Positions 70 through 53,820 of a stretch of 59,628 bases of DNA are shown piece after piece; positions within the stretch are counted from its first letter, which is position 1, and every line of letters begins with the position of its first letter. The translations under genes were made by a program, and so were the position numbers. Location of the stretch: NCBI GenBank assembly GCA_964545365.1, contig CAZJFM010000005.1, forward strand, positions 12,462-72,089, read 5' to 3'. The stretch is from an uncultured Candidatus Competibacteraceae bacterium. Lineage in GTDB: Bacteria; Bacteroidota; Bacteroidia; CAIKAF01. The notes beneath the pieces are model-generated. The model searched no databases and had not been told where the DNA came from. It saw only the letters and a list, made by a program, of their open reading frames with translations.

Positions 70-215
70 GCGGCCCGGCGGCGCCGGAAACCCCGCAGTT
101 TGGGCAGCCGCCTCGGCTTGGGCAGCGGAGGCTGAGGAACGAAGCCCACGCAGGCCCTAGCCGGGCGTGCTGCCCAAAGTAGGAGTTGCAGGCAGAGACG
201 GAAAAGCCGCCCAAA
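70..215 (-). repeat. Palindromic interspersed element, copy 1 (divergent)
   Basis: Stem TTTGGGCAGC 99-108 pairs with GCTGCCCAAA 169-178, with inner arms 109-123/154-167. On the minus strand it begins TTTGGGCGG and ends GGGGTTTCCGGCGCCG, similar to the other copies. Confidence 0.6.
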
Positions 216-231
216 GCCATTAAGGACTTAC

Positions 232-239
232 TATCTTTG
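232..239 (+). promoter_or_regulatory. Bacteroidota -7 promoter box TATCTTTG
   Basis: Matches TAnnTTTG and lies 4 nt before the maf ATG. Confidence 0.65.
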
Positions 240-243
240 CCCC

Positions 244-846
244 ATGCAATACTCAATGGCACTTCCCTACCGTTTGGTCTTGGGTTCTGGGTCGCCGCGA
301 CGCAAGGAGTTGCTGGAGGGCCTGGGCTTGAAGTTTTCTGTGGAGGTTCGACCTGTGGATGAGGAAGTTCCGGAAAATATGGAAGCCGGTGCGGCGGCCG
401 AATCGTTGGCGGCTCAAAAGGCTGTTCCTTTTTACCAAGACTTGCAAGATTCGGCCGAGCTTTTGCTGCTTACCGCGGATACGGTAGTTTCTATCGATGG
501 AAAGTTGCTGGCTAAGCCCGCGGACGAGGAAGAAGCCAAGGAAATGCTGCGGCGTTTAAGTGGTCGCCAACACGAGGTGGTTACCGGCTTTGCTTTGTCT
601 TGGGGAGAGCAACAAAGGTGCCAATCGGTTCGGTCGGTAGTGCATATGTGCGCGCTGTCGGAGAAACTCATTCATTATTACGTAAGTCGGTTTAGGCCAT
701 TGGACAAAGCCGGGGCTTATGGAATTCAGGAATTTATAGGGATGGCCGGCGTAGAAAAAATCGAAGGCTGTTTTTACAATATTATGGGTCTGCCCACGCA
801 GGCTGTGTATGCCACATTAAGTGCATTTTGCCATGAGAACCATTGA
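244..846 (+). CDS. maf: Maf family nucleoside triphosphate pyrophosphatase
   Basis: LGSGSPRRKELL N-terminus, ADTVV, KPAD and DKAGAYGIQ motifs. Confidence 0.95.
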   Translation: MQYSMALPYRLVLGSGSPRRKELLEGLGLKFSVEVRPVDEEVPENMEAGAAAESLAAQKAVPFYQDLQDSAELLLLTADTVVSIDGKLLAKPADEEEAKEMLRRLSGRQHEVVTGFALSWGEQQRCQSVRSVVHMCALSEKLIHYYVSRFRPLDKAGAYGIQEFIGMAGVEKIEGCFYNIMGLPTQAVYATLSAFCHENH

Positions 847-1084
847 TCAAATTGAGCATCCGGTGTTTCGGATAACCATTATGAAAATGAACGACAAGCA
901 TTTGTTGCGTGTGGAGGCCGGCCCTTACGAGCAAGTGTATAAATTCACCCCGGATATGGCAGAAGGGCCCGCAGATATTCGAGGATTGGTAGATGAGGCG
1001 TTTTTAGAAAAGGTAAAAGAGCTGTTCGACGGCATGCACGGCCACTTTTTGCCTGCGGTTCGAAAACTCAAAGGGCGCGACTAA
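821..1084 (+). CDS. Small hypothetical protein; start may be ATG at 833
   Basis: 87-aa ORF overlapping the maf end and ending at the cdaA stop. Globular-looking composition; no motif recognised. Confidence 0.65.
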   Translation: MHFAMRTIDQIEHPVFRITIMKMNDKHLLRVEAGPYEQVYKFTPDMAEGPADIRGLVDEAFLEKVKELFDGMHGHFLPAVRKLKGRD

Positions 1085-1899
1085 GCTCCCGACTCGGCCT
1101 CTTTACCGGGACTTTTAAGTAGTTGCCGTAGCTTATCTATGGCTTCTTCTATGGTTACGTCCTCTTCCAACATCCCACCTTGGCTCCAACTGATTTGTCC
1201 GGTCTGTTCGGAAACCACCAAAGCCAAAGCGTCGGAAACTTCGGTAATGCCTGCCGCGGCACGGTGACGCAAGCCCAAATGATCGGGAAAATCAACCTTT
1301 TCGGTAATGGGCAAAATACATTTGGCTGCACGAAGCGTGTTGCCTTTAATGAGTACCGCCCCGTCGTGCAAAGGGGTGTTGTTGTAAAAAATTTGCTGCA
1401 CCAGCAGGCTCGAAAATCGTGCTTCCAGGGTTTGCCCGGACTTCAAATAAAATCCTAAGCCGTTTTCGCGGATAAAGACCAGCAAGGCTCCGGTGCGCGA
1501 CTGAGACAAGGCCTTTAAGGCAGCTGCCAGCTCCTTAAAATCTAAATTGGACCGATTGGTCCAAGCCCAGCGCCCGCTGAACATAGCGCGCACAAAGCGG
1601 CGGCGGTTGTGTTTGCCTGTGTTGCCGAGCAAGAGCAAAAAGCGGCGAATTTCTTGCTGAAACACAATGATAAGGGCAATGACCCCAACACCAATGAACT
1701 GCCCCAAAATTTGACTAAGCAAACGCATTTGCAGGGCGTCGACGGTAAGGTAAACCACATAAATAATGAGCATTCCGGCAAAAATCCGCAAAGCTTGTGT
1801 GCCTCGAATGAGCACATAGACCTGGTAAAAAAGCACGGCCACCAGCAGGATGTCGACCAAATCGACCCATTGCCACTGAATAAACTGCAAAAAACTCAT
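1081..1899 (-). CDS. cdaA: Diadenylate cyclase CdaA/DacA (membrane-bound DAC)
   Basis: Three N-terminal TM helices, HDGA and GLRHRAA catalytic motifs. ATG at 1899 overlaps the folP stop (ATGA). Confidence 0.93.
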   Translation of the reverse strand: MSFLQFIQWQWVDLVDILLVAVLFYQVYVLIRGTQALRIFAGMLIIYVVYLTVDALQMRLLSQILGQFIGVGVIALIIVFQQEIRRFLLLLGNTGKHNRRRFVRAMFSGRWAWTNRSNLDFKELAAALKALSQSRTGALLVFIRENGLGFYLKSGQTLEARFSSLLVQQIFYNNTPLHDGAVLIKGNTLRAAKCILPITEKVDFPDHLGLRHRAAAGITEVSDALALVVSEQTGQISWSQGGMLEEDVTIEEAIDKLRQLLKSPGKEAESGA

Positions 1900-2753
1900 G
1901 GTTCTGCTTGTTTTTGTTGGTGGCAAGCCCACCAAAAGTCAATGGCTTGGCGGGTTTCGGCCACATCGTGCACGCGCAGCACATCGGCTCCTTGTTCCAG
2001 GGCCAGTACGGCACCGGCCAAGCTGCCTGCCAAAGCCTGTTCGGGCGCATCTACGCCACTGGCTTGTTGCACCATGCGCTTGCGCGAAATCCCCACCAAA
2101 AGAGGCCTTTCACACATTTCTTTGATATGAGCCAATCCGTTAAATAAGGCCAAATTGTGCGCCAAGGTTTTCCCAAAACCAAAACCGGGGTCAACAATGG
2201 TATCGTGCAAGCCCAAGCTATGCAAATGATGCAGTCTACGGCTAAGCCACTCGGTAACTTCCACAAGCACATGGCCATACACCGGATTTTTTTGCATGGT
2301 TTTGGAATCCCCCTGACGATGCATAACCACATAGGGCAAGGCTTGGGTTGCAGCCCATTCCGGCAAGCGAGGGTCGGCCAAACCTCCTGAAATATCATTA
2401 ATGATGTGCGCTCCCATTTCCACGGCACGTTGAGCTACATTCAGCCGCCAAGTATCGACCGATAAGGGCAAACCTATGCCCAAGGTTTGAACCCTTTGCA
2501 GCACCAAACGCAAGCGCTCCCACTCCACTTCTTCGGGCAACACCTCGGCACCGGGCCGGCTGGACATGCCTCCAAGGTCGAGTATATCCGCGCCACCATC
2601 CACGGCCAGGCCAAGGGCTGCATCAAGGGCGGCCTCTTCGGTAGCCCTGCTTTGGCGGTAAAAGGAATCGGGAGTAACATTCAAAATAGCCATTAGTTTA
2701 GGCTTTTGAAGGCTGTAGAGTTCCCGATTTAAACGAATATGGTAGCTTTGCAT
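1896..2753 (-). CDS. folP: Dihydropteroate synthase
   Basis: ILNVTPDSF, SSRPGA, SVDT, DPGFGFGK, SRK and RVHDV motifs. Confidence 0.97.
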   Translation of the reverse strand: MQSYHIRLNRELYSLQKPKLMAILNVTPDSFYRQSRATEEAALDAALGLAVDGGADILDLGGMSSRPGAEVLPEEVEWERLRLVLQRVQTLGIGLPLSVDTWRLNVAQRAVEMGAHIINDISGGLADPRLPEWAATQALPYVVMHRQGDSKTMQKNPVYGHVLVEVTEWLSRRLHHLHSLGLHDTIVDPGFGFGKTLAHNLALFNGLAHIKEMCERPLLVGISRKRMVQQASGVDAPEQALAGSLAGAVLALEQGADVLRVHDVAETRQAIDFWWACHQQKQAEP

Positions 2754-2774
2754 GAACGGAGAACCGATTGTGCC

Positions 2775-3314
2775 ATGGAAGAAACACGGCGTACTTATGA
2801 TGCGGCCTTAAAGGTATGCAAAAGCCTGTTTACGCTAAAACTGCAAGACTACGGAAGCAACTGGCGCATTTTGCGTCCGGAATCGCTTACCGACCAGCTG
2901 CTTATAAAAGCCAGGCGCATTAGAACCTTAGAAACTACGGGAGCACGCCAGGTGGACGAAGGTATTGAACCTGAGTTTATTGGACTAGTCAACTACGCCA
3001 TTATGTCCATCATTCAATTGGAAAAAGGCTGGCTCGACGCCCCTGCCACCGAGCCGGAACCTATTGAAGTTTGGTACGACGAAGTAGCAGAAACCGCACG
3101 TGCACTCATGATTGCCAAAAACACCGATTACGGCGAAGCCTGGCGCGACATGCGCATCAGTTCCCTCACCGACATGGTGCTGAACCGGATTTACCGAATC
3201 AAGCAAATTGAGGACAACCAAGGCAAAACCAAAGTAAGTGAAGGACTGGATGCCAACTATTTAGACCTTATCAACTATGCCCTTTTTGCCCTCATTCGGC
3301 TCGAAGTAGCTTAG
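2775..3314 (+). CDS. DUF1599 domain protein (two repeats)
   Basis: Duplicated K-x-x-DYG-x-x-WR motif (KLQDYGSNWR and KNTDYGEAWR). Start placed at ATG 2775. Confidence 0.85.
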   Translation: MEETRRTYDAALKVCKSLFTLKLQDYGSNWRILRPESLTDQLLIKARRIRTLETTGARQVDEGIEPEFIGLVNYAIMSIIQLEKGWLDAPATEPEPIEVWYDEVAETARALMIAKNTDYGEAWRDMRISSLTDMVLNRIYRIKQIEDNQGKTKVSEGLDANYLDLINYALFALIRLEVA

Positions 3315-3342
3315 TTCGGCTCCCTTTTCTGATTTTTTTTGA

Positions 3343-3489
3343 TTTGGGGCGCCGGGCGGGCTTTCAGGCTTCGGGCCAAACGCTTGGCAAAGGCAGGCTA
3401 AGCCTCCGGTAGTTCCGCAAAGCTCCACTTCCTCGGCCAAGCCTGCTTAAGCCAAGCTTTTGGCCGCTCCCGCCTTCAATCCCTGCGCC
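3343..3489 (+). repeat. Palindromic interspersed element, copy 2 (loop type GTTCCGCAAAGCT)
   Basis: Starts TTTGGGGCGCCGGGCGGG. Stems 3374-3399/3440-3465; loop GTTCCGCAAAGCTCCAC 3412-3428; ends ATCCCTGCGCC. Confidence 0.8.
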
Positions 3490-3674
3490 AATTCTAAACT
3501 TTAGACCGCTTTCTTTGGAATTTATTTAACAGCTTTTTTGCAAACTAGGCTTCGCTTTCCCTGCGGCCTGCGTATTTTTGCTATGAAGCAAGCCTAGTGG
3601 GCAAGCAAAAGCAAAAACAGATGCAACTTAGCCAAACTCGGGTTTGAGCAAAGGAATATAAATACAGATTGCGC

Positions 3675-6163: not shown

Positions 6164-6271
6164 ACCAAAGCGAGCCCGTTTACGGGTTGTGTACACTAGT
6201 GGAGCCCAATGCCTTGTTGCCAAAACGCTCTACTTACACTACACAAACAACTACTTTAAGTAAGAGGCGGA

Positions 6272-6631
6272 TCATCCCTTCTGTTTCTTCACCAGTTTCA
6301 GAAGTATATAATTTTCGGTAGCCTCTGCGGAAAAGCCCACATCGTAAACGAAAAAGTGATGAGGGTTTTTGTTATCTCTATGTGTAAAATAGTCAAAATT
6401 AAAACCTGCCTGTTCGAGCATTTCCTTAGAGGGCGTCTGAACTCCTTCTTGAAGGAACTGCGCTAAAATCTTGCGGTTACTTCTTAAAATAGACTCAATC
6501 TTACGAAAACCGGCCTGGTGAGCCTTATACTTTTGATTGTGAAAATTGGTGCGGCAACTGTCGTCGCAAAACTTCTTATCTACCCTCCCCTGAATAGCAG
6601 CGCCGCAATCCATGCAATTTTTCTGGCACAT
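6272..6631 (-). CDS. Zn-ribbon hypothetical protein (DUF2116-like)
   Basis: N-terminal CxxC-x12-CxxxC (CMDC...GRVDKKFCDDSCR). Confidence 0.8.
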   Translation of the reverse strand: MCQKNCMDCGAAIQGRVDKKFCDDSCRTNFHNQKYKAHQAGFRKIESILRSNRKILAQFLQEGVQTPSKEMLEQAGFNFDYFTHRDNKNPHHFFVYDVGFSAEATENYILLKLVKKQKG

Positions 6632-6742: not shown

Positions 6743-7369
6743 TTAGTTGTGAGGCTGATCCGGGATAGATGTTAAAAAGTGGGCAAACTCCTGATCAAAA
6801 CTCTTTCCCATATCTTGCAAGTACCACCGCTGCATGCCCTCTGCAATGTCCGTGGGCTCCAAACCCTGGCCTACCAATTGGGTTCTATACTCCATAGCTT
6901 TTTGAGTTCGTGGCCCCCAGACCCCCAGGACCTCAAGACTAGCTCTTCGCAGTAGTATAAGTTTAGGAATAGACTTGGCACCATTGGTCAAAAATGCATC
7001 CATAAGCCTAGGGTTTGCATCGCGGAGCAGCAAATGAAGCTCGATTTTATCTGAAGCCTCTTCCAACTTTTGAAGCATAGGAATATAATAGGCAGCATCA
7101 CCACACCATGCTTCGGTAATGCAGAGCCATAGCATGGGTTCATTGATAGACATAAGGGCATCCAACAAATGAGACTGGGGCGTCCATTGCTTATATATAC
7201 GACGAGAGCGGGCGGCATTTAATTTGGTGTAATGGATTAGCGCTTTAGATTGAACCGCGCCCGTAGTTTTGCCGTTGGCGATACAATCTTGCACTAACTT
7301 CCGGTATTCCGAAGAGGTCATGGCTTGTTTCAGGAGTTCCGATTTCAGATATTTCATTTTGATTTTCAA
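6743..7369 (-). CDS. Thioredoxin family protein (Thioredoxin_9-like)
   Basis: TEAWCGDA, LRD-N--LMD-FLTNG-KSIPKLI and WGPR motifs. Start may be 7357. Confidence 0.88.
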   Translation of the reverse strand: MKIKMKYLKSELLKQAMTSSEYRKLVQDCIANGKTTGAVQSKALIHYTKLNAARSRRIYKQWTPQSHLLDALMSINEPMLWLCITEAWCGDAAYYIPMLQKLEEASDKIELHLLLRDANPRLMDAFLTNGAKSIPKLILLRRASLEVLGVWGPRTQKAMEYRTQLVGQGLEPTDIAEGMQRWYLQDMGKSFDQEFAHFLTSIPDQPHN

Positions 7370-7395
7370 ATAGTTAACAATAAAGAGCCAAAGAA

Positions 7396-7422
7396 TAAAC
7401 GTTTGTAAACGTTTAATAAACG
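7396..7422. promoter_or_regulatory. Triple direct repeat TAAACG(TTT), candidate operator
   Basis: TAAACGTTT at 7396 and 7406 and TAAACG at 7417, in the divergent thioredoxin/ssb spacer. Confidence 0.45.
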
Positions 7423-7495
7423 ACTAGAGCCAATAGGGGGTTGCACCTTTGTACTGTTCGTTGTTCGAAGCTAAAACGCAAAAACCAAAAGACGC

Positions 7496-7858
7496 ATGAA
7501 AAATCTAAGTAATTCAGTACGCTTGATGGGAAGGTTAGGAGCCGACCCGGAAATCAAAGAACTAGAAAACGGCAGCCGTGTAGCCCGTTTTTCTGTAGCC
7601 ACCTCAGAAATCTACCGAAACCCGTCGGGAGAACGGGTAAGTGAAACACAGTGGCACCAAGTAACTGCCTGGAACAAAATGGCCGAACTTTCGGAAAAAT
7701 TGTTGGGCAAAGGTAGTGAGGTCGCTGTAGAAGGCAAATTGGTTCACAGCAGTTATACCGGTAAAGACGGTCAAAAGAAATACTATACCGAGGTAGTGGT
7801 CCGGGAAATGATGGCCATAGGCCGCAAGGACAAATCTACCGAGGCAGCAGAAGTTTAA
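7496..7858 (+). CDS. ssb: Single-stranded DNA-binding protein, short paralog
   Basis: N-V-L-GRLG-DPE, VARFSVAT, TQWH-V-AW and KGSEVAVEGKL motifs. No C-terminal DDxPF tail. Confidence 0.93.
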   Translation: MKNLSNSVRLMGRLGADPEIKELENGSRVARFSVATSEIYRNPSGERVSETQWHQVTAWNKMAELSEKLLGKGSEVAVEGKLVHSSYTGKDGQKKYYTEVVVREMMAIGRKDKSTEAAEV

Positions 7859-8072
7859 CTTGGGTGGGGGACGAAGAAGTGCCCTGCAGGGGATCTGTGG
7901 GGCCTTCTTTCCTTACATCTCAAAAGCTTGGTTGGTTGGTTTAGGCTTTTCTGCAGTGCACTTTGCCTGCAGAAAGCCAGTCACGCCCGCACTCTTCGCT
8001 CTCTTATATATGCCGCATACCTTTTCATGCGGGCGTGCCTGGCTTTAACGTGAGGTTTGATTTGTTCGCAAA

Positions 8073-8104
8073 AAAAATGCCCTGCGCTGGCGCAGGGCAT
8101 TTTT
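8073..8104. terminator. Bidirectional intrinsic terminator
   Basis: AAAAATGCCCTGCG-CTGG-CGCAGGGCATTTTT between convergent ssb and yceI. Confidence 0.85.
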
Positions 8105-8124
8105 GTGCAAAACAATCTACTGTA

Positions 8125-11435: not shown

Positions 11436-11439
11436 GTAT

Positions 11440-12636: not shown

Positions 12637-12655
12637 ATCCATAGAGTTAGCACCG

Positions 12656-12779
12656 GGCCTTGGGGCTGAGCCGAAAAGCCCGGAGCAGCAAAGCTTAGGG
12701 ACATAGGCACTGAGGATGCGGCGCGCAGCAAGCACCCGGAAGGCTTATGGCCCTTAGCTTTGGGGCGAGGACTTGGAGG
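12656..12779 (-). repeat. Palindromic interspersed element, copy 3 (loop type GCTTGCTGCGC)
   Basis: Reverse complement matches 20027-20150 at 105/124 positions (hand count) with a 34-nt identical core. Confidence 0.92.
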
Positions 12780-12875
12780 GGAGGCCCTTGTGCTAGACAA
12801 AACAAAGTTTCTTTAGTTTCAATACCGATGGTGTAGCCAAAGAACCTCCATTGGTGTAGGGACCAAAGCGAAATC

Positions 12876-13355
12876 TCAGGCCCCCAAAGCCAAAGTAAAA
12901 AACGGAGAGGGGAGTTTTTCTGAGGGTAGGTGGAGCCGCATTTGCAAGCCGTATTCGTGGCTTTTGCTCAAGCAATTGGGCAAGGGACGGTGCAACTTTT
13001 CGGGGCCCAACCAAAGGTTCAGTCCAGCTGCCTGTACTGTAGCAATAGCAGCGAAAGGAGTACTCCACACCTGGGCGAGCAAGGCTGTTTCGGTTGCTTT
13101 GTGCAGCAAGTGAACGCTTGGCCCATTGGCTTTTTGCAAAACAAACTGTGCCGGGTGGAAGGTTGCCGTTTGAAGGGTTTCGGGCAAGGCTTTCCAAGCG
13201 GCTTCTTTTGCTACAAATACCAAAGCGGCGTTTAGGCGGCCGGTAGTAGCTGCTGGTTTTTCGGGAAGCACGCGGGCAAGCTGTGCTGTATTGGGCAGGA
13301 ACCAAGACAGGTAGGGACCTGCGGCGGGTAAAAAATCAATGGCCGGACGAAGCAC
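12876..13355 (-). CDS. Divergent AcpS-type 4'-phosphopantetheinyl transferase
   Basis: FVAKEAAWKA matches the F/W-x-x-KEA-x-x-KA motif. Follows the ACP gene; probable GTG start at 13355. Confidence 0.55.
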   Translation of the reverse strand: MLRPAIDFLPAAGPYLSWFLPNTAQLARVLPEKPAATTGRLNAALVFVAKEAAWKALPETLQTATFHPAQFVLQKANGPSVHLLHKATETALLAQVWSTPFAAIATVQAAGLNLWLGPEKLHRPLPNCLSKSHEYGLQMRLHLPSEKLPSPFFTLALGA

Positions 13356-19974: not shown

Positions 19975-20150
19975 TTTGGGGCCCCAAGTGCGTTGCTCAA
20001 CAAAAAGGATTTTGCACGGGTATCCGCCTCCAAGTCCTCGCCCAAAGCCTAAGGGAGGCAAGGCTTCCGGGTGCTTGCTGCGCGCCGCATCCTCAGTCCC
20101 TGCCTCCCTAAGGCTTGGTGCTCCGGGCTTTTTGGCTCCTCCCCAGGGCC
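19975..20150 (+). repeat. Palindromic interspersed element, copy 4 (loop type GCTTGCTGCGC)
   Basis: Starts TTTGGGGGCC; 20027-20150 is about 85% identical to the reverse complement of 12656-12779. Confidence 0.92.
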
Positions 20151-20186
20151 TTCGTTACATTTAGCTTCTTGAGCTAAGCCAAATTA

Positions 20187-29242: not shown

Positions 29243-29278
29243 ACCTCCTTCCTAAAGCACTCTTTTTTTGGAAGACCT

Positions 29279-29429
29279 GCGCCAGGGGGCGGCACGGATA
29301 CCCCCAAGCCTGCAGAGGTTGGGGCGACAGGCCAGGCCGAGTGTAGCTTTGCGGAACTCCGGACTTGCCTAGACGCCCCCCTCTGAAGGCTTGGGAGTAG
29401 CAGGGAGCACCCGCCCGGGCGCCCAAAAA
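29279..29429 (-). repeat. Palindromic interspersed element, copy 5 (loop type GTTCCGCAAAGCT)
   Basis: Stems 29303-29326/29374-29395. GTGTAGCTTTGCGGAAC at 29341-29357 is identical to 40627-40643. End GCGCCAGGGGGCGGCACGGATA matches copy 10 at 19/22. Confidence 0.85.
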
Positions 29430-29446
29430 TCAAAAAACGCTATTGC

Positions 29447-32634: not shown

Positions 32635-32702
32635 ATCTCGCACTGCAAACTTAGGCAGCATTTACCAAACAAGCGCAATACCCGATAGAGGTAAAAGGAA
32701 TA

Positions 32703-32849
32703 TTTGGGGGCCAAACGGGCTCTCGCCCACCGGGCGGGCGGCCAAAGGCTGTGCGGCTAAGCCTGTGGTGGTTTGCTTAGGCTCCACCTCCTCGGCTAAG
32801 CCGCACATGCCTTTGGCCGCCCGCCGCTCCAGGGCTCCATCCCTGGCCC
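32703..32849 (+). repeat. Palindromic interspersed element, copy 6
   Basis: Ends ATTTGGG...CCCAAAT; perfect 14-bp stem 32736-32749/32809-32822 plus 9-bp stem 32750-32758/32799-32807; loop GGTTTGCTTAGGCTCCACCTCCTC. Confidence 0.85.
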
Positions 32850-32957
32850 AAATCATCTTCCAAAACATGCACGCCGTACCGAAGTTAATTTTTAGGCTTT
32901 CCCTTGCCGCTTATGCCAAATAGCCCTGTAAAAGGCCTAGTTGATGTATATTTGTAC

Positions 32958-40490: not shown

Positions 40491-40521
40491 GCTTGTGCGT
40501 AAACAACCTTTGTATAATACC

Positions 40522-40550
40522 AAAAGCCCGAAGATATCGGGCTTTTTTTT
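40522..40550 (+). terminator. Intrinsic terminator after dnaA
   Basis: AAAAGCCCGA-AGATA-TCGGGCTTTT followed by a T-run. Confidence 0.85.
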
Positions 40551-40562
40551 GAAAGAGATGTT

Positions 40563-40712
40563 GGGCCCCTGATGGAGGCAACTAACCCGCAAGCACCGGG
40601 GCCTTGGCTTTACGGCCTTTGGGCGTGTGTAGCTTTGCGGAACGCCGCCCGGAGGCACGAAAGCCGGCCTCGGGACTGAGGATTAGTGCGGACAGCAGGA
40701 TTAGGCCCCCAA
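40563..40712 (-). repeat. Palindromic interspersed element, copy 7 (loop type GTTCCGCAAAGCT)
   Basis: 17-nt exact match to the copy 5 loop. On the minus strand the ends are TTGGGGGCC...GGGCCCAA, with imperfect long arms. Confidence 0.8.
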
Positions 40713-40715
40713 GGA

Positions 40716-41552
40716 TTAAGCATTCCTATCTTCTGGCACCATAAGCATGGGCAAGCGGGCCTGCATGGCCAAGTTTCGGGTGGTGCTTCCTTCAAACAGG
40801 CGATCGAGCCAATTTTTGCGTTGGGGCACCATTACCAATAGGTCGGTGGGATTGTCAAGCAAATACAACTCCAGCCCTTCGGAGGCCGAATCGGCAGTAA
40901 TTTCGCGCAGCTTCAGATTGGTTTGCGGGAACTCCGTCTGAAGTGCTTCCAAAAGCGGAGTATTGGCCTGTAAATCCAGCTGCAAATTCGCATTCACATG
41001 CAGCAATTCCACCTCAGCCTTAAAGGGAAGCAACAAACCGAGGGCATGCGCCAAAGGTTTGCGGTCGTCGCGCTCCAACTCAGTGGCAAAAAGCACCTGT
41101 TTGGGGTCAAAAGGCCCGGATTTTTCAGGTATAAACAGCATGGGAATCTTGATTCGGTGCAGCAAGTGGGTTGCATTAGATCCAATAAGTCGTTCCAAAA
41201 CCCCGCTGGCTCCGGTGGTTCCCATTACCAATAGCTGAGCTTGGCTCTCCTTCACCTGATCTTCTAAGGTATCTGCTACAAAGCCGTCCAAAATTTTGCC
41301 TTCTACCTCTATGCCATGTTGTTTTACTAAAGCCAACCGCTTGTCCATGGCCTCCCGAGCTCCTTTAAATAAAACCTGATGCGCATCGGCGGCATAACCC
41401 AATGGCCCAACCGCATCCACCATAGGCACATGGACCACATGCACCAAGAGCAAGGACATGTTGTGTGCCTGAGCAATGGAAATGGCAGCATCTAAGGCTT
41501 TGTCGGCGGTTTGAGAGAAATCTAAGGGAACGAGAATGGGTGCTTGAATCAT
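40716..41552 (-). CDS. Universal stress protein (two USP domains)
   Basis: ILVPLDFS, LLVMGTTGASG----IGSNA and DLLVM motifs. Confidence 0.93.
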   Translation of the reverse strand: MIQAPILVPLDFSQTADKALDAAISIAQAHNMSLLLVHVVHVPMVDAVGPLGYAADAHQVLFKGAREAMDKRLALVKQHGIEVEGKILDGFVADTLEDQVKESQAQLLVMGTTGASGVLERLIGSNATHLLHRIKIPMLFIPEKSGPFDPKQVLFATELERDDRKPLAHALGLLLPFKAEVELLHVNANLQLDLQANTPLLEALQTEFPQTNLKLREITADSASEGLELYLLDNPTDLLVMVPQRKNWLDRLFEGSTTRNLAMQARLPMLMVPEDRNA

Positions 41553-46362: not shown

Positions 46363-46440
46363 GGATGCGTTTTGCCCTTTTACTGCAAAAAACTTTCCAA
46401 GCTCAAAAATCGGCCATTTTGGCTTGCTTCATGCACCAGA

Positions 46441-46480
46441 ACTGTCATTTTGTCATTCCGGCTCGATTGCAACTGCCATT
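46441..46480 (-). promoter_or_regulatory. ATGACA direct repeats upstream of clpB, candidate heat-shock operator
   Basis: Minus strand reads AATGGCAGTT...AATGACAAAATGACAGT, 80-120 nt upstream of the ATG. Confidence 0.45.
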
Positions 46481-46638
46481 TTTTCAGGGGCCTTTTCCGG
46501 CCTTTGGCTTTACGTCCCTCCGGCAAGGCATGGGTGGCGCGGTTTCCGGGGTTTCCTCCTAAGGTCGGAACCTCCTCAACCTGCGCCTCCCAAAGCCTTG
46601 CCGTTCGGCACGGTACCGCCGCAGTCCGGGGCCCGCGC
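46480..46638 (+). repeat. Palindromic interspersed element, copy 8 (divergent)
   Basis: Stem CGGCAAGGC 46521-46529 / GCCTTGCCG 46595-46603 and inner TGGGTGGCGC/GCGCCTCCCA; loop TCCGGGGTTT...CCTCCTC resembles copies 2 and 6. Confidence 0.7.
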
Positions 46639-46710
46639 AATTCAATCTTCACAAAAAAAACATGCGCCTTACGCGAACTCATTCCACGCGTCTTTCCGTA
46701 TTTTGAGGCC

Positions 46711-49005: not shown

Positions 49006-49173
49006 GGCCTTAAAATACAATTCCTATGGAGGCTTACCACAGTTTTTAGAGCATTTAACCCTCTTTTTATTCCAACTAAAATTGAGGGAACAACAGTAAA
49101 CTCAATAACACTCAAATAAAAAAGGCCGGTAGATGCTTCCAATGTAGTCCCGGTAGGCAGCCAAAAAGGAAAA

Positions 49174-50370
49174 TTATTGCGCCAACCTTAAGCCGCTAAA
49201 TTGCCACCTTAAGTGCGGATGGAAAAAGTTACGGTAAGTAATGCGGCTATGCCCTTCAGGAGTGGCAGCCGATCCACCACGCAACACCATTTGCCCACTC
49301 ATGAATTTGCCATTATACTCTCCCAAAGCACCTGCATCTACCTCAAAACCGGGATAAGGCAAATAGGCAGATTGGGTCCATTCCCAAACCCAGCCGTGCA
49401 CAGGAAAATGTTGTGGAAACAGTCGGGCAGCGACCTCCCATTCTGTTTCCTTGGGCAAGCGCTTTCCTGCCCAACGGGCATATGCTTCCGCCTCATAATA
49501 ACTCAAATGAGCTACCGGATACTGAGCATTTAGCGGCTTTAATCCTGCCAAACTGTAATACATCCACCTGCCTTCTTCTGTATTCCTATGCCAATGCAAA
49601 GGAGCCTTTAGGCCTTGGTGCTGAACCAAGTCCCAACCTTCGGCAAGCCATAACCGATGGTTCAAGTAGCCTCCATCATCTATAAACTCTAAATATTCCA
49701 ACTGATGCACCGGCCTAAGGGCAATGGAAAAATCGTCCAACCATACCTTATGGGCAAGCTTCTCATTATCGAATGCGAAGCCTTCCCCGCTATGCCCAAT
49801 ACTGTACAGGCCCTCCTCAATATCTAGCATTTCAGACTCCTTGGGAAGCGTTTGAAACTCTACAAAATCCTTATGGTACTCAGGCAAAAAAGGCTGGTTA
49901 CCCAAAATGAATTTAATGTCGGTAAGCAATAATTCCTGGTGCTGCTGCTCGTGATTTAGGCCTATCCAAACCCTTCGCAAGGCCTCTTGCGGCAAGGTTC
50001 CTGAATTTAAGGCCGCCTTCATCTGCTCATCTACATAAGCTCTGTAGGCTAGAACCTCTTCCACGCCGGGGCGCGACATGGCCCCTCTTTGCTCTCGCCC
50101 AACCCGCTCTCCCATACCTTCGTAATAGCTATTAAAAAGGTAAAAAAACTGTGGGTTAAAGGGCTTGTATTCCTTAATAAAATCTTGAAGAACAAAGGCC
50201 TCGAAAAACCAAGTGGTATGCGCCAAGTGCCATTTGGGAGGACTCACATCTACCACAGGCTGCACCACATGATCTTCTTTGGTAAGTAAAGAGCAAATGG
50301 CTTCGGTACGGTTGCGAATATCTACAAAGGCCTGTTTCATCAATACAGATTTAATTCTTTCCAAAAGCAT
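49174..50370 (-). CDS. egtB: Ergothioneine sulfoxide synthase (DinB_2 + FGE-sulfatase domains)
   Basis: SPPKWHLAHTTWFFE, HEQQHQE (HX3HXE), YNGKFM and RNFF---RWQFSGLRLA motifs. Start is 50370 or 50340. Confidence 0.93.
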   Translation of the reverse strand: MLLERIKSVLMKQAFVDIRNRTEAICSLLTKEDHVVQPVVDVSPPKWHLAHTTWFFEAFVLQDFIKEYKPFNPQFFYLFNSYYEGMGERVGREQRGAMSRPGVEEVLAYRAYVDEQMKAALNSGTLPQEALRRVWIGLNHEQQHQELLLTDIKFILGNQPFLPEYHKDFVEFQTLPKESEMLDIEEGLYSIGHSGEGFAFDNEKLAHKVWLDDFSIALRPVHQLEYLEFIDDGGYLNHRLWLAEGWDLVQHQGLKAPLHWHRNTEEGRWMYYSLAGLKPLNAQYPVAHLSYYEAEAYARWAGKRLPKETEWEVAARLFPQHFPVHGWVWEWTQSAYLPYPGFEVDAGALGEYNGKFMSGQMVLRGGSAATPEGHSRITYRNFFHPHLRWQFSGLRLAQ

Positions 50371-50489
50371 TAAAGCCTGAACACAATCCGGATATGATTG
50401 CCCGGTGAACAAATGTATTGCAACAATATACAGTCAATTGCTCAGGAATGCACCATCCCTAAGGTTATACTTTAACAAAGAAAACCGGA

Positions 50490-50996
50490 TCAAGCCAACC
50501 GAGAGCGAACCAAACTCACCATAGCCAATCCGGAAATCAGGCCGTAGGCCGTTAAGCCGGACATGGTAAATACCGTCCGCAATTTTAGGCTATTCAAGGT
50601 GGTTAGGTTGTCCATAAATTTGGCTCTATCCTCCAAGGAAAGCTCCGCAGGGAGCTCCGAAGCTGCCATATCTACCAAACCCGGCAAATATTCCGGGTCA
50701 ATCCAACCATAATACAACCAAACGGCTCCAGAGCATAACACTGCCGTGAGCAAAGCCACTTTTCCGGCCTCTTTAAAAGCTTCAAATCCGCTTTTGCCCT
50801 GCAAAAAGGCTTGGCGCGCCACCACAAACTGAAAAGGCAATAAAGCCAACAGCAAAGGGGCAGCAGGCATTCTTAAAAAGAAACCGAAATGCCCTTCACC
50901 GGCAATCCAAGCATTCAAAAGTTCAGGCAAATGCACCATTCGGTACAACAAATACCCAAGCCCTAAATAACAGCCGTAAAGTACCGCCCGATTCAT
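50490..50996 (-). CDS. DUF4199-like membrane protein
   Basis: Four hydrophobic segments; Y---IDPEY motif. Confidence 0.7.
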   Translation of the reverse strand: MNRAVLYGCYLGLGYLLYRMVHLPELLNAWIAGEGHFGFFLRMPAAPLLLALLPFQFVVARQAFLQGKSGFEAFKEAGKVALLTAVLCSGAVWLYYGWIDPEYLPGLVDMAASELPAELSLEDRAKFMDNLTTLNSLKLRTVFTMSGLTAYGLISGLAMVSLVRSRLA

Positions 50997-51000
50997 GTGT

Positions 51001-52755
51001 TTAGCCGTTCATCGAAAGCAAAAACTCTTCGTTGCTTCGGGTAAATTTCAGTCGATCGGTCAAAAACTCCATAGCCTCAACCGTATTCATATCCGAAAGG
51101 TGGTTGCGCAACACATAAAGTCGGTTGATGGACTGCGGATCTTGCAACAAATCATCGCGCCGGGTACTGGAGCCATTGATATCAATGGCCGGATAAATGC
51201 GCTTGTTGGCCAATTTACGATCCAACTGCAATTCCATGTTTCCGGTTCCTTTAAACTCTTCAAAAATAACCTCGTCCATTTTGGATCCGGTGTCAATCAA
51301 AGCTGTAGCCAAAATGGTAAGCGAACCTCCATTTTCTATTTTACGGGCAGCACCAAAGAATCGCTTGGGCTTTTGCAAGGCATTGGAATCTACCCCACCG
51401 GTCAATACTTTACCCGATGCGGGAGCACAGGTATTGTGTGCACGGGCCAAACGCGTAATGGAATCCAATAAGATCACCACATCTTGACCGCTTTCTACCA
51501 AACGCTTAGCTTTTTCCAGCACAAGGGTGGCAATTTTGACATGACGCTCGGCAGGTTCATCAAAGGTAGAAGCAATAACCTCTGCATTAACACTGCGCGC
51601 CATATCGGTCACTTCTTCCGGGCGCTCGTCAATAAGCAAAATAATAAGGTAAATCTCCGGATGATTCTTGGCTATGGCGTTGGCAACCTCCTTGAGCAAT
51701 ACGGTTTTTCCCGTTTTGGGTTGAGCTACAATCAAGCCGCGCTGGCCTTTACCAATTGGGCTAAACATGTCCATAATCCGAACCGACAAAGAGTTGTTCT
51801 TTGCTGCAGGATTCACAATGTTTATTTTCTCAAAAGGAAACAAGGGGGTCAAATAATCAAACGGTACCCTATCCCGCACAACGGCCGGATCTTGACCATT
51901 GATTTCCTTTACTTTAATTAAGGGGAAATACTTCTCCCCCTCTTTTGGTGGGCGTATTACCCCTACAATGGTATCCCCGGTTTTTAAAGCAAATAATTTA
52001 ATCTGAGACTGAGACACGTACACATCGTCCGGCGAAGACAGGTAATTGTAATCGGAACTACGCAAAAAGCCGTAGCCGTCCGGCATAATTTCCAACACGC
52101 CCTCGGCATCTACCGTACCTTCAAAAGCATAATGGTCAAAGGCTTTTCTGCCCTGTCCATCGTCTTGACGCTGATCCGGGCGGTTTTGACTCCGTTGGCC
52201 TTGACGGTCGTCTGCATGTTGGTTTCGTTGGCCTTGACGCTCCTCTGCAGATTGCTTCTGATTTCTGTATTCTCTTTGCTCTCGTTCAGGATGCCGAAAA
52301 GGCTTGGGTTCTGCCGAGCGTCTGCCTTCAGCACGAAAGTCCTTGGCTTGCGTACCTTCTGCATCCTTTAGAGGATTGCGGCGAGGCTCTCGAAGAGAAA
52401 CGCGCACTTTTCTTTCCGGCGGTAATGGAGCCTGAATTGCATCTTCCGCAGTAGCATCCTTACTTTGGGCAGTTGCCATTGGCTCACTTTCCTGCTCCCG
52501 CTTAGGAGAGGTATCTTTCTTACCATCGTCTTGACGAATCAAGCGCACACGGCGGCGTATTTTTGGCTGTTCTTCGGTTTCACTCCGCTTTTCCGTCCCC
52601 TTGGACTCAACAGACGAAGATGAAACAGACTTGGCAGAAATCTGCTCAATCAATTGATCTTTGCGCATGTACTGAAACTTCTCAATGTGCAATTCCTTTG
52701 CAATATTCTTGAGTTCAGGCAATAACTTACGCTTCAATTCCTCTTTCTCGTACAT
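51001..52755 (-). CDS. rho: Transcription termination factor Rho with long charged N-terminal insertion
   Basis: [35 protein letters not shown] and FKGTGNMEL motifs. Confidence 0.98.
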
Positions 52756-52953
52756 ATAATGTGTGTAATAGAGTACCCCATTCCGGACAACGAAATTTCA
52801 AAACTTGGAATGGTGGCGTGGGGAGAAGGTTTCTTCGGCTGCAAGTTTACAATTTTTTTTCTGTATGTACACGTTTATATACATTTTTTGTAAAAAATCC
52901 GCCGGGACCCGCTCTCCGGTTCCATTCCTTACCTTTGTGCAAACCTTGGAAGC

Positions 52954-53415
52954 ATGATTCAACGCGTACAAACCCTTTGGCTTTTAGCTGTGCTTATCCT
53001 TCAATCCCTTATTTGGTTTTTACCTTTTGCCTCTTTTTCTATGGCATCCGGCCAAGACCTAAACGTGGCGCTTCAAAGTTTGCCCGATACGGTAGAAGGT
53101 GCATTCACCGGATATTTAAGCCTTTACGTCTGTTGGGCAATTGCCGTGCTTTCTGCCTTAATTGGCATTTTTCTATTCAAAAAACGAAGGCAACAAATGA
53201 AACTTTGTGTCTATGGCATGATTTCCTCTGCTTTGTTTGCCATTTTTGCTTGGATTACTGCGTTCAAACTTGCCGATGCCACGCAGGCAGAGCTCCACAT
53301 GGGCAGCTCGCTCAGCTTATTCATGCCGGTACTAAGCCTGCTTTGCTTTGTTTTGGCCTTACGCTATATCCGCAAAGACGAGGCCTTGATTAAATCGCTG
53401 GATCGGCTTCGGTAA
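52954..53415 (+). CDS. DUF4293 family membrane protein
   Basis: MIQRVQTLWL N-terminus, IFLFKKR--QMKL and I-KDE-L-KS-DRLR C-terminus. Confidence 0.9.
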   Translation: MIQRVQTLWLLAVLILQSLIWFLPFASFSMASGQDLNVALQSLPDTVEGAFTGYLSLYVCWAIAVLSALIGIFLFKKRRQQMKLCVYGMISSALFAIFAWITAFKLADATQAELHMGSSLSLFMPVLSLLCFVLALRYIRKDEALIKSLDRLR

Positions 53416-53424
53416 TTGTTTTTA

Positions 53425-53605
53425 TTTGGGGGCAGCCGGGCTGTCCTGACGGGTAGGTCAAGACCCAAGGCTTGCTGCAAATCCTCAGCCCCAAAGCACG
53501 GGCGGCTAAAGGCTGCGTGGTCTTCCTCAAAGCATTGAGATAAGCCTCTGATCCTTAAGCCAACCGGCTTTGGGACTTGCGGATTTTGCGATGCATCCCT
53601 ACCCC
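53425..53605 (+). repeat. Palindromic interspersed element, copy 9 (divergent)
   Basis: Starts TTTGGGGGC; stem CCCAAAGC 53490-53497 / GCTTTGGG 53567-53574; ends CATCCCTACCCC. Confidence 0.7.
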
Positions 53606-53668
53606 GGAGATCCTCTAATGAACAGAATCTCCTCACATAAAACACCTCTCCAAAAATGGAAAGAACCC

Positions 53669-53820
53669 GCGCCAGGGACCGGCACGGAAAGCCCGGATGA
53701 CCAAAGGCATGCAAAGCCTAAGCCGTGCGGGGTGGAGCGCAGCAAACCCTGCACGGCACTAGCTTTGCTGCCTTTGGGCAACGGACTTGAAGGGAGGGCC
53801 CGGTTCAGGCGCCCTAAAAA
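53669..53820 (-). repeat. Palindromic interspersed element, copy 10 (loop type TTGCTGCGC)
   Basis: Three nested perfect stems (53701-53709/53769-53777, 53711-53717/53762-53768, 53722-53728/53751-53757). Shares AAAGCCCGGA, GCGCAGCAA and GGACTTG flanks with copy 3. Confidence 0.85.

Follow-up and report, generated by a model that had tools for sequence, protein, structure and literature searches.

Dispersed palindromic repeats have, to our knowledge, been well studied in Proteobacteria but barely in Bacteroidota. A REP is an imperfect palindrome of 20-40 nt with a 5' GT[AG]G (or CGTC) tag at the foot of its hairpin. REPIN/REP elements and their RAYT enzymes (TnpA-REP, HUH Y1) are among the closest systems to the repeat described here. 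Among them are REPs called 'atypical', which go with RAYT subclass 2.6, and long or 'double-foot' REPs, which go with subclass 2.4 (PMC3116915, PMC2817692, PMC6006769). Both subclasses are present in Bacteroidetes, and 'atypical secondary structures' without GTAG lie on the flanks of subclass 2.6 (PMC6006769). Hairpin MITEs (Neisseria Correia/NEMIS, enterobacterial ERIC and the IS200/IS605-derived PATEs), integron attC sites and the GC-rich hairpin repeats of organelles (yeast mitochondrial GC clusters; sponge repetitive hairpin-forming elements, PMC2800124) also invite comparison.

The element considered here is a GC-rich, intergenic hairpin repeat of approximately 160 bases that occurs roughly once per 6 kb in an uncultured Bacteroidota lineage. 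Positions follow the forward strand of the window, the whole stretch of 59,628 nt that was analysed. Like REPINs, the elements are intergenic, GC-rich, high in copy number and strand-specific, with two inverted conserved end modules around a spacer that together form one long hairpin. Target duplication is likewise not seen, and the copies are enriched past gene ends and at convergent junctions and are inherited vertically at fixed sites. Unlike REPs, they carry no GT[AG]G or CGTC tag at the foot, and they are larger, at ∼160 nt with a stem of ∼55-60 bp compared with 20-40 nt for a REP or ∼100 nt for a doublet. They also differ from REPINs in that copies within a genome are very divergent, with unalignable middle stems and a conserved apical module, and from REPIN-RAYT systems in that no RAYT was found in the sampled DNA of the lineage.

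The hairpin MITEs resemble the elements in their length (100-200 nt), non-coding nature, terminal inverted repeats and insertion close to genes, where mRNA processing or stability can be altered. However, their high copy-to-copy identity is not seen here, nor are the target-site duplications and recognisable parent insertion sequence typical of all of them except PATEs. Integron attC sites are similarly defined by structure, with short conserved termini, asymmetric unpaired bases and a position just past the stop codon of a co-oriented gene, but the present elements are longer, have the reversed terminal polarity, lack a cassette array or integrase, and occupy sites among housekeeping genes that are stable across species. 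The organelle repeats, too, are scattered in the intergenic DNA of an AT-richer genome, although they belong to another domain of life and are much shorter; we know of no conservation of these repeats at orthologous sites under purifying selection.

Detection of the family

A first-pass annotation of the window had listed ten copies and proposed that they form a single dispersed family, conserved in fold but divergent in sequence. All ten sites were present at, or a few bases from, the positions given, and the proposal was borne out by a covariance model trained on just two copies from JAGYKD, a genome other than that of the window, and used with filters off. The model matched nine of the ten copies at E = 8e-15 to 6.5e-4, and no copy in the window beyond those already listed. 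The tenth, 53425-53605, was marginal (E = 0.89), its ortholog in a relative being matched at E = 5e-4; it is a divergent family member. Further copies, which the family claim predicted, were also found, with 51 distinct copies matched in 354 kb of the lineage. No match came from viral contigs (136 kb), from a syntenic outgroup (21.7 kb) or from 505 kb of unrelated genomes, the exception in the last being contig L012, which is from the same lineage as L051. At the same locus, the sense strand scored far above the antisense (e.g., 76.2 vs 20.7 bits). The copies constitute one family with a defined strand.

A search of the whole window against Rfam 15 matched no named family at or above the gathering thresholds, while E-value mode around two copies returned only sub-threshold chance matches to microRNA-precursor hairpins. 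The earlier statement that stems differ almost completely between copies holds for most pairs but not for the copies at 12656 and 19975, which are 86% identical over 112 nt.

Structure and covariation

Each element is ∼158 nt long, with a stem of ∼55-60 bp, and has three parts: two basal modules, an apical module and a middle stem. The basal modules are conserved, imperfect inverted copies of one another, in outline 5' TTTTTGGGSGCC... and 3' ...GGCGCAG..TTCCAA. The type A base reads 5' TTTTTGGGSGCC..CCGGGCCCTCCCTGCTACTCC and 3' GGGGTATCCGTGCCGGTCCCTGGCGCAG..TCTTCCAA, and two other base types exist. In helices 1-2 the 5' module pairs with the 3' module in 84-88% of cells, with all pairs covarying. 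The apical module is conserved as GG.GGTTCCGCAAAGCTMCACC(TCCTC) and variants, and the middle stem (∼2 × 30 nt) is free in sequence but retains its pairing. Internal loops that are asymmetric and conserved are also present, and the order along the sense strand is U-run, hairpin, A-run.

The shared ends reported for most of the window copies recur in the foot consensus of 49 copies (5' TTTTT-GGG-S-G-C-C; 3' GGCGC-AG..), in which a GT[AG]G or CGTC tag is absent, and the shared apical motif recurs as GTTCCGCAAAGCTMCAC or variants ending in CCAC..CCTC. Taken alone, the 10-nt end motif is not enriched in the window (17 matches vs 11.7 expected); the significance lies in its placement at the feet of the hairpins, taken together with the whole-element model.

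The description of the sites as GC-rich, long-stem folds was upheld, with a GC content of 57-70% (window 47.6%) and energies of -65 to -101 kcal/mol (window mean -39.6, sd 8.7) that place them among the most stable 160-nt folds of the window. When the whole window was scanned in 160-nt windows with a 20-nt step, nine of the ten sites gave the nine lowest-energy folds, and the copy at 53425 ranked eleventh, behind a non-member hairpin at 7821-7980. Calculated with DNA parameters against dinucleotide shuffles, z-scores ranged from -1.6 to -8.7.

Across the 51 copies, 89.2% of cells were paired, compared with 57.6% after shuffling and 37-50% when partners were slid. Double-change cells numbered 725 against 221, and covariation was found in 50/50 modelled pairs. 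Compensated changes also appeared in sequence-only MAFFT alignments, in paralogs and orthologs alike. The variable stem is nearly all Watson-Crick, with GC, CG, AU and UA all common and G.U making up ∼1-2% of cells; U.G and G.U pairs recur at fixed positions in the basal and sub-apical modules. At least about ten mismatches or bulges are present in every copy. Among sense-strand mismatches G.T exceeds A.C (85 vs 45), and transversion-type mismatches exceed G.T. The rarity of G.U in the variable stem, together with the transversion-type excess, is unlike typical structurally selected RNA and points to maintenance at the DNA level.

Window copies and their orthologs

Five copies had been assigned to convergent junctions, correctly, and these are spread over four junctions. 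Three others lie between divergent genes (62-216, 32701-32858 and 46481-46640) and the remaining two are flanked by tandem genes. Housekeeping genes (dnaA, rho, clpB, recQ) surround the copies, in every orientation. Orientations alternate and are split 5:5, which indicates that there is no replication-strand bias of the IS200/IS605 and REP kind.

At the convergent junctions, the minus-strand copy at 12639-12888 (core hairpin 12639-12802; covariance model score 33.4 bits), listed earlier from 12656, has an AT-rich 5' extension reaching 12888, beyond its first-listed bounds, and terminating in TTTGGGGGCC (12879-12888); its orthologs are in L125, L130 and L131. The type A copy at 29262-29431 (minus; 76.2 bits, E = 8e-15) has its 5' tip 18 nt past the stop codon of an M48 peptidase gene and orthologs in L045, L127 and L131; it is identical to a JAUHWY copy from TTGGAAGACC through CCCAAAAAT, with divergent flanks. 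The copy at 40553-40716 (minus; 33.5 bits) begins at the stop codon of a Usp gene, and the dnaA terminator hairpin faces its 3' end. Its ortholog set (L083 6581-6742; L127 1885-2046) contains a compensated pair, CCTG:CAGG to CCCG:CGGG. The fourth junction holds a tail-to-tail pair, of which the first is the divergent member at 53422-53605 (plus; DNA-fold z = -2.75), starting 7 nt after the end of a DUF4293 gene and with its ortholog at L129 6292-6457 of JAUHWY (25.9 bits, E = 5e-4). The second is a type A copy at 53660-53819 (minus; 59.7 bits, E = 3e-11), with its 5' tip 5 nt past the stop codon of an M23 peptidase gene and orthologs at L129 6089-6248 and L128 10794-10954.

The copy at 3342-3497 (plus; 43.7 bits, E = 8.8e-8), with a type C base and the apical loop GTTCCGCAAAGCTCCAC, lies between tandem plus-strand genes, 28 nt after the stop codon of a DUF1599 gene, and 97.6% of alignment columns are identical in its ortholog at L125 10604-10759. 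The other tandem copy, at 19975-20157 (plus; 25.8 bits over 20008-20157), has the 5' sequence TTTGGGGCCC at 19975 and lies between minus-strand genes, opposed to recQ, whose stop is 30 nt from its 3' end; its orthologs are at L130 2397-2542 and L131 11923-12072.

Between divergent genes, the copy at 62-216 (minus; 26.2 bits with covariance model R1, E = 5.4e-4; DNA-fold z = -4.2) lies upstream of maf, with 98.8% of alignment columns identical in its JAUHWY ortholog (L125 7324-7478). The type C copy at 32701-32864 (plus; 27.4 bits; DNA-fold z = -8.7) has a near-perfect stem of -104 kcal/mol, and two mirrored dinucleotide swaps distinguish it from the JAGYKD ortholog (L127 9803-9961). The copy at 46481-46640 (plus; 29.1 bits) lies between clpB and a Mur-ligase gene, with orthologs at L083 about 656-815 and L128 18332-18491; a 100-aa gene call that spans it, without a Pfam match, is probably spurious.

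Conservation and past copying

The copies are old and fixed. In 18 ortholog-junction comparisons with three related genomes, all 18 junctions were filled in the same orientation (JAUHWY 8/8, JAGYKD 7/7, JING18 3/3), with no gain or loss of an element. Mobility had been suggested in the first-pass annotation, and this comparison gave no sign of present movement. Because no empty site was found among the examined orthologous junctions, both the target sequence and the lack of duplication are read from paralog boundaries only.

Between orthologs, the elements are 95-97% identical compared with 67-79% at third codon positions, 93-97% at first and second codon positions and 84-88% in other intergenic DNA. 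Their substitution rate is about as low as that at non-synonymous sites. Within the ortholog sets, variation was seen at 35 of 526 pairs, compared with 152 of the 690 columns that are unpaired or belong to the flanks, and mirrored dinucleotide swaps occur on both sides of the stem.

Most within-genome pairs have only their ends and apex in common. Paralog clusters with 70-94% identity at non-orthologous sites do occur, including within one genome (L016/L034, L082 290/1717, L031/L102). No master sequence surrounded by near-identical copies was apparent, the best within-genome paralogs being 70-94% identical. The identity of paralogs breaks off abruptly at (T)ATTTGGGCGCC and beyond GGCGC..TYTYC, and the flanks of the paralog alignments show neither a direct repeat nor a target-site duplication. 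Sharp-ended paralogs in unrelated locations, free of target duplication, fit copying via a single-stranded hairpin.

The reported absence of a transposase from the window was corroborated. Mobilisation in trans had also been envisaged, and a search for RAYT/TnpA(Y1) genes yielded none in about 0.53 Mb sampled from the lineage, where a regex scan of six-frame translations detected no HUH...Y motifs. No parent insertion sequence with the same termini was present in the window or sampled loci, and the genes between inverted copies are unrelated. Given that neither an HUH/Y1 enzyme nor another transposase was found in the window or the ∼0.53 Mb, the spreading enzyme is hypothetical.

Placement relative to genes

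The placement counts draw on gene calls, which were rough in the 8-kb blocks. Usually the 5' tip is found 0-30 nt past the stop codon of a gene in the same direction. Of the 50 copies for which a gene was called on the 5' side, 33 have that side toward the end of a gene and 17 toward a start. Convergent junctions are enriched (21/45), with the 5' tip the nearer in 17/21 (median about 27 nt vs 195 nt). At tandem junctions, 10 copies are co-oriented and 5 opposed, and all four independent double junctions are tail-to-tail. By these rough gene calls, ∼30% of copies (9 divergent, 5 opposed tandem) fall outside a co-directional 3' UTR.

An intrinsic terminator comprises a GC-rich hairpin with a U-tract directly after it on the transcribed strand. 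This identity was rejected for the elements, as on either strand the T-run is 5' of the hairpin and the A-rich stretch 3'. Elsewhere, the window has ordinary short terminators following dnaA (about 40520-40548) and at 8062-8115.

Origin and function

We tentatively favour, with slightly less than even confidence, an ancient, lineage-specific REPIN-like palindromic family that is now immobile and constrained, probably as a transcribed 3'-UTR stem-loop. The family would have spread long ago as a folded single strand via a trans-acting HUH/Y1 enzyme of RAYT or IS200/IS605 type, and its movement would since have ceased. Each copy may now be retained by selection because it would be transcribed as the tail of the mRNA of the upstream gene, where it could act as a very stable stem-loop, serving as a 3'-end barrier or insulator and not as an intrinsic terminator. 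Arm pairing may also be restored in DNA, with one arm copied from the other by template switching in quasi-palindromes. From the original proposal of a non-autonomous mobile family, the REPIN architecture and copying-like paralogs survive but present mobility does not, with 18/18 junctions filled and no enzyme seen in the window or in about 0.53 Mb of the lineage. Its alternative, a structured RNA, is favoured by the strand-specific motifs, post-stop placement and excess of G.T over A.C, though not in the form of free-standing RNA genes. Against our preferred reading stand the ∼30% of copies outside a co-directional 3' UTR, the scarcity of G.U in the variable stem, the excess of transversion-type mismatches over G.T, and the lack of a replication-strand bias in the window. 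In addition, selection on the stability of a hairpin of -90 kcal/mol cannot by itself explain the near-invariance of every pair.

The elements could instead act as DNA, as cruciform-prone sites or single-strand hairpins to which a host protein binds, with an effect on chromosome architecture or supercoiling; placement at gene ends would then reflect only the tolerance of such sites there. A model for this fairly unlikely alternative is offered by the BIMEs of E. coli, to which gyrase and IHF bind. The arms are true inverted repeats with an almost purely Watson-Crick variable stem and chiefly transversion-type mismatches, the mirrored dinucleotide swaps on both arms suggest arm-to-arm copying in DNA, and copies are both enriched at convergent junctions (21/45), as with BIMEs, and found in promoter-side (divergent) regions. 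However, about ten or more mismatches or bulges per copy would strongly hinder cruciform extrusion, the asymmetric internal loops and far higher sense score indicate that a single strand is read, and the 5'-tip and tail-to-tail rules are hard to reconcile with a symmetric duplex site. It is also unlikely that the family is a still-active selfish REPIN/RAYT or IS200/IS605-derived PATE population without host function, its conservation reflecting a low mutation rate or arm correction rather than selection. The REPIN-like architecture, the lack of an observed target duplication and paralogs up to 94% identical within one genome would suit such a population, as would the very long vertical persistence reported for REPIN populations. 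Yet none of the 18 ortholog junctions showed gain or loss while third codon positions differ by 21-33%, neither a near-identical cloud around a master sequence nor a RAYT in about 0.53 Mb was seen, and the roughly 5- to 10-fold slowdown in substitution requires selection, since arm-to-arm correction leaves the neutral substitution rate unlowered.

Strand-specific motifs, conserved loops, covarying pairs, conserved orthologs and the position of some copies between divergent genes would be compatible with free-standing small-RNA genes, i.e., multicopy hairpin RNAs that individually possess a promoter and a terminator. We consider this very unlikely, as there is no conserved upstream promoter and the flanks diverge right outside the element, the U-tract is absent 3' of the hairpin (the sense strand reading U-run, hairpin, A-run), many copies start 0-30 nt past a stop codon, Rfam gave no match, and there were no matches to other window sequence as possible targets. 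Extremely improbable are integron attC-type sites, whose folded single strands are recognised by a tyrosine recombinase in a structure-specific manner. Although a conserved structure with divergent sequence, short conserved termini, asymmetric unpaired bases and a co-oriented position directly past the stop codon are all attC-like, the copies lie ∼6 kb apart among housekeeping genes and not in cassette arrays, an integrase is absent nearby, the termini TTTGGGC...GCCCAAA have the reverse polarity of RYYYAAC...GTTRRRY, and the junctions are stable across species.

A bolder reading, to which we assign a low probability, is that the ∼500 hairpins per genome are a host-level signal system and not decayed mobile DNA. 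The conserved base and apex may be held apart by a spacer helix of fixed length and free sequence, and a dedicated protein may read one strand at gene 3' ends, with the arms kept complementary by arm-to-arm templated correction. If true, Bacteroidota would have a genome-wide cis element of a new class or, alternatively, a new attC-like single-strand substrate for an as yet hypothetical recombinase or nuclease.

The family is unusual in joining a REPIN-like plan with stem divergence that defies alignment while every pair is kept, and with strong cross-species conservation that equals that of amino-acid-changing sites, without gain or loss at the examined sites. Should the pattern be genome-wide, about 2-3% of the genome of an uncultured lineage would be non-coding hairpin DNA under purifying selection. 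It would then offer a clean natural system for the host role of domesticated REP-type elements, and the same system would address how long imperfect palindromes remain paired over evolutionary time.

In practice, short-read assemblies of the lineage are interrupted at the elements, which also attract false ORFs from gene callers.

Genomic setting and relatives

The window is the final 59.6 kb of an 87-kb metagenome scaffold (ENA ERZ23491156, KOPF15-1 scaffold_223) and has a GC content of 47.6%. Ordinary chromosomal genes are found within it, including dnaA, rho, clpB, recQ, fabH, rpmB and ssb, and protein matches assign it to Bacteroidota. Close relatives of its M1 peptidase are confined to that protein's own 90% cluster, with the next matches only 55–56% identical, indicating that the lineage is isolated. 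The collinear relatives are JAUHWY01 ('Bacteroidia bacterium 2_bin.4'), the long-read MAG JAGYKD01 ('Flavobacteriales bacterium M30B58', GCA_018401695.1), which includes a contig of 1.57 Mb, and ENA JING18-1 scaffold_218. JAUHWY01 and JAGYKD01 share 85–91% nucleotide identity with the window in 8-kb blocks. JAUHWY carries two genes that are absent from the window (JAUHWY locus L129 9485-12559, corresponding to window 50412-50490): a histidine-kinase-like gene and a response-regulator/pyridine-nucleotide oxidoreductase gene, located between a DUF4199 gene and a DinB/FGE-sulfatase gene.

A lineage-restricted family of long hairpins

The ten hairpin sites listed in the first-pass annotation hold up in a fold scan, carried out in 160-nt windows across the entire stretch, and nine of them also in a covariance model. 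In the fold scan, nine of the ten are the nine most stable folds of the window, while copy 53425 (copies are named by their start) ranks eleventh, below a non-member hairpin at 7821-7980. The ten sites have folding energies of -65 to -101 kcal/mol against a window mean of -39.6 (sd 8.7), a GC content of 57–70%, and z-scores of -1.6 to -8.7 relative to dinucleotide shuffles with DNA parameters. All ten lie between called genes, as originally described, a probable artefact call at 46481-46640 aside. Here, a public 100-aa gene call without a Pfam match (window 46380-46682, reverse strand) lies almost wholly over the element and is probably spurious, an artefact of the GC-rich repeat. The placement of five copies at convergent junctions also held, with 12656, 29279, 40563, 53425 and 53669 distributed over four such junctions; copies 70, 32703 and 46480 occupy three divergent junctions, and 3343 and 19975 two tandem ones. 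Two ordinary short hairpins, at 7973-8046 and 8062-8115, fall outside the family (model E = 7.5), the latter flanked by an A-run and a T-run and resembling a bidirectional intrinsic terminator.

BLAST revealed little similarity among the window copies, with 12656 and 19975 sharing 86% identity over 112 nt and a 17-mer at the tip, GTTCCGCAAAGCTMCAC, common to three copies. A scan with this 17-mer, using one genome per species, returned many matches in JAUHWY01 and JAGYKD01, a single match in a Flavobacteriales MAG from freshwater (locus L051), and isolated matches scattered over other genomes. A MAFFT alignment of the copies sharing one base type (type A) was dropped because it was not structural in the stems, and an Infernal model was therefore seeded from two close JAGYKD paralogs only (158 positions, 50 pairs). 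Run without filters, this model detected nine of the ten copies in the window, with E-values from 8e-15 to 6.5e-4; beyond these and a marginal score for 53425, it had no other match there. The JAUHWY ortholog of 53425 scored E = 5e-4. Every copy scores far higher on one strand (e.g., 76.2 versus 20.7 bits), and the element therefore has polarity.

Scanning of the relatives bore out the proposal of a family, with 51 distinct copies detected in 354 kb (window and relatives). The family is real, specific and restricted to its lineage; besides the window clade, one or more other Bacteroidota clades carry it. The model had no match in a syntenic contig (21.7 kb) from the nearest outgroup, nor in 505 kb of unrelated genomes sharing the 17-mer by chance, with the exception of contig L012, which is probably mis-binned and carries a copy almost identical to the L051 one. 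Viral contigs totalling 136 kb contained 15 chance matches to the 17-mer and zero elements, and a metagenome scan with the type-A 3' motif found family members in one of six loci, a small contig. The shared end motif, to which the first-pass annotation had drawn attention, was not significant against shuffles when taken alone; only the whole-element model was. Logan short-read contigs of the lineage tend to begin or end at the long-hairpin elements (contig L117 ends near window 3400 and 12700, and L126 within the ortholog of 3342-3497), and these repeats break assemblies.

Anatomy and maintenance of the fold

The anatomy of the element was drawn from the consensus of the model alignment and from flank profiles. 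Its 5' basal end reads TTTTT-GGG-S-G-C-C and its 3' basal end GGCGC-AG(R)TYTY, often followed by TCCAA(A); as the 5' TTTGG pairs with the 3' CCAAA, the hairpin extends to its tips. The basal modules are imperfect inverted copies of one another with conserved asymmetric internal loops. Type A bases comprise CCCTCCCTGCTAC on the 5' side and TATCCGTG on the 3' side, a second type has a small GGGCYCTCGCCC hairpin, and a third has an AT-rich insertion of ∼30–75 nt in the 5' arm. The main form of the apical module is GG.GGTTCCGCAAAGCTMCACC(TCCTC), with sub-families defined by other loop variants (e.g., GCTTGCTGCGCGCCGC and GGCTTCGTTCCTCAGCC). The sequence CACCTCCT frequently forms the 3' side of the tip (e.g., at window 32785-32800). 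We take it to match the anti-Shine-Dalgarno terminus of 16S rRNA, in which case AGGAGGTG would stand on the opposite strand.

The middle stem (∼2 × 30 nt) is unalignable between most copies, yet always paired. The conserved fold with divergent sequence that was noted initially is confirmed by paired cells and compensated changes across the 51 copies. In an alignment of these copies fitted to the model, with which sequence-only MAFFT alignments agree, standard pairs comprise 89.2% of cells, compared to 57.6% after column shuffling and 37–50% when partners are slid. Double-sided changes occupy 725 cells versus 221 in shuffles, and occur at all 50 of the 50 pairs. MAFFT alignment of the paralogs at loci L031, L102 and L034, and of 12656 with 19975, showed multi-base block differences mirrored on the opposite arm. 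Orthologs of 40563 have either CCTG:CAGG or CCCG:CGGG. Two dinucleotide exchanges, each mirrored on the opposite arm, set the JAGYKD ortholog of 32703 apart: GG becomes CT where CC becomes AG, and TG becomes CC where CA becomes GG.

Position relative to genes and level of action

The placement of the elements follows a clear rule relative to gene ends. Based on rough ORF calls in the sampled blocks, 45 copies are flanked by genes on both sides, with 21 in convergent, 10 in tandem and co-oriented, five in tandem and opposed, and nine in divergent contexts. Where a 5'-side gene was called (50 copies), the 5' side faces a gene end in 33 cases and a gene start in 17. The 5' tip is the one near a stop codon at 17 of the 21 convergent junctions (median ∼27 nt versus 195 nt), often with a gap of just 0–20 nt. 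All four independent two-copy junctions have a tail-to-tail arrangement in which each 5' tip abuts its own gene end. The ten window copies alternate in orientation, five each way, and hence show no replication-strand bias.

An identity as intrinsic terminators was rejected, as both strands read T-run, hairpin, A-rich, the reverse of a terminator's flank order; normal short terminators exist elsewhere in the window, e.g., after dnaA. A guide or target role was also considered and set aside, since comparison of the element with the rest of the window (elements masked) gave only chance 11–13-mers. Reading of a single strand is favoured by the polarity and conserved asymmetric loops, the stop-codon rule, the 85 G.T versus 45 A.C mismatches on the sense (best-scoring) strand, and the recurrence of U.G/G.U pairs at set positions of the conserved modules. 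DNA-level maintenance is favoured by the variable stem, where nearly all pairing is Watson-Crick, all four pair types occur and G.U is scarce, by an excess of transversion-type mismatches over G.T, and by the arrival of compensated changes as mirrored multi-base blocks. Strand reading and DNA-level maintenance can be compatible. The palindrome arms would be kept alike in DNA, possibly via template switching within quasi-palindromes, a process established in E. coli. Selection would act on a role of one strand, the simplest such role being that of a transcribed 3' end to the mRNA of the upstream gene.

Duplication, age and constraint

The copies originated by duplication. Clusters of paralogs with 70–94% identity occur at unrelated sites, some inside one genome, for example the pairs L016/L034 (92%) and L031/L102 (85%), and two copies 1.4 kb apart in L082 (94%). 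Paralog identity starts sharply at (T)ATTTGGGCGCC and stops shortly beyond the 3' basal module, and the paralog alignments contain no direct repeat at the flanks of the copies.

Orthologous regions were fetched via members of 90% protein clusters. Junctions were filled, with orientation kept, in 8/8 cases in JAUHWY, 7/7 in JAGYKD and 3/3 in JING18; those of the nearest outgroup (55% amino-acid identity) are not comparable to the window's. The empty sites envisaged in the first-pass annotation were not seen among the junctions examined in these three genomes, which displayed no presence-absence polymorphism and no gain or loss of an element. Between orthologous regions, the elements are 95–97% identical, similar to codon positions 1 and 2 (93–97%) and above other intergenic DNA (84–88%) and third codon positions (67–79%). 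No difference separates the copy at 29262-29431 from its JAUHWY ortholog, with the adjoining DNA diverging at once on both sides. Across ten ortholog sets, variation affects 35 of 526 pairs, compared to 152 of 690 unpaired or flanking columns; of these 35, eight show full compensation, eight a one-sided or wobble change, and 19 contain a broken state. On this evidence the family is ancient and under purifying selection, and has ceased to move at every site examined. The pair-by-pair conservation of a -90 kcal/mol hairpin is beyond what stability alone can explain.

Relationship to known repeats and enzymes

The designation 'REPIN/MITE-like' in the first-pass annotation holds for the kind and origin of the element; current mobility is not supported, with no movement at the examined sites. 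The closest precedent comes from Quentin et al. (2018; PMC6006769): RAYT subclasses 2.4 and 2.6 are common in Bacteroidetes, and 'atypical secondary structures' lacking GTAG flank subclass 2.6. The description given there is of weaker structures, and REPs as a rule are much shorter than this element. The REPIN plan of two conserved inverted end modules, a spacer and one overall hairpin is matched. The element lacks the sequence hallmarks by which REPs, MITEs, attC sites and terminators are defined, and was therefore placed among dispersed palindromic repeats, outside any named family. Rfam returned zero matches in the whole window at gathering thresholds and only chance microRNA-hairpin matches around two copies in E-value mode, and full-text literature searches found no description of the family.

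The window was correctly said to lack a transposase: no transposase domain was seen, and comparison of ten unannotated window proteins to NCBIfam gave nothing relevant. No RAYT/Y1 gene was seen beside the elements in the sampled blocks, and ∼0.53 Mb of the lineage contained no ORF with a HUH/Y1 motif, the single YIEANP match being antisense to another gene. Candidates for an element-adjacent transposase were rejected, as the only recurring ORF family in 35 blocks is a secreted glycine-rich/PKD-like protein, and the ORFs between inverted copies encode a small lipoprotein-like protein and an M16 peptidase. The enzyme that would have spread the family is putative, as is the element's present function.

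The secreted protein belongs to a large paralogous family, members of which were found in seven of the 35 sampled blocks, often adjoining an element (L010 4056-6927, L015 1885-4218, L016 1-961, L053 5650-6894, L069 5889-7187, L079 6101-7348 and L110 4145-5311). Each combines a conserved N-terminal domain with PKD-like repeats and a long tail rich in glycine; the GC-rich glycine codons also gave false hairpin calls. An eighth block (L036) encodes a distantly related PKD-repeat protein.

Other repeats

A second, unrelated repeat consists of a hairpin of 20 nt, AGACGG(R)A.GC.T(Y)CCGTCT, with GTAA ahead of it, and occurs in tandem arrays with units of 21, 35 or 52 nt (window 59541-59628, L052 7006-7195, L015 4269-4550, L079 2090-2165 and L035 2957-3143). 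The window array consists of 2.5 units after a stop codon, with the scaffold ending inside it, and at three loci from relatives the array directly follows the 3' side of a long-hairpin element. This second repeat may represent the genuine short REP of the lineage. In JAGYKD (L052 ∼7330-7470), a ∼145-bp insertion splits a long-hairpin copy; it has terminal inverted repeats, AGACCGTTGAYGCGTTG, and GGATGG is apparently duplicated. Neither the ortholog nor a paralog contains this insertion (L079 2198-2347 and L015 4593-4721 were compared), which looks like a different, more recently mobile MITE.
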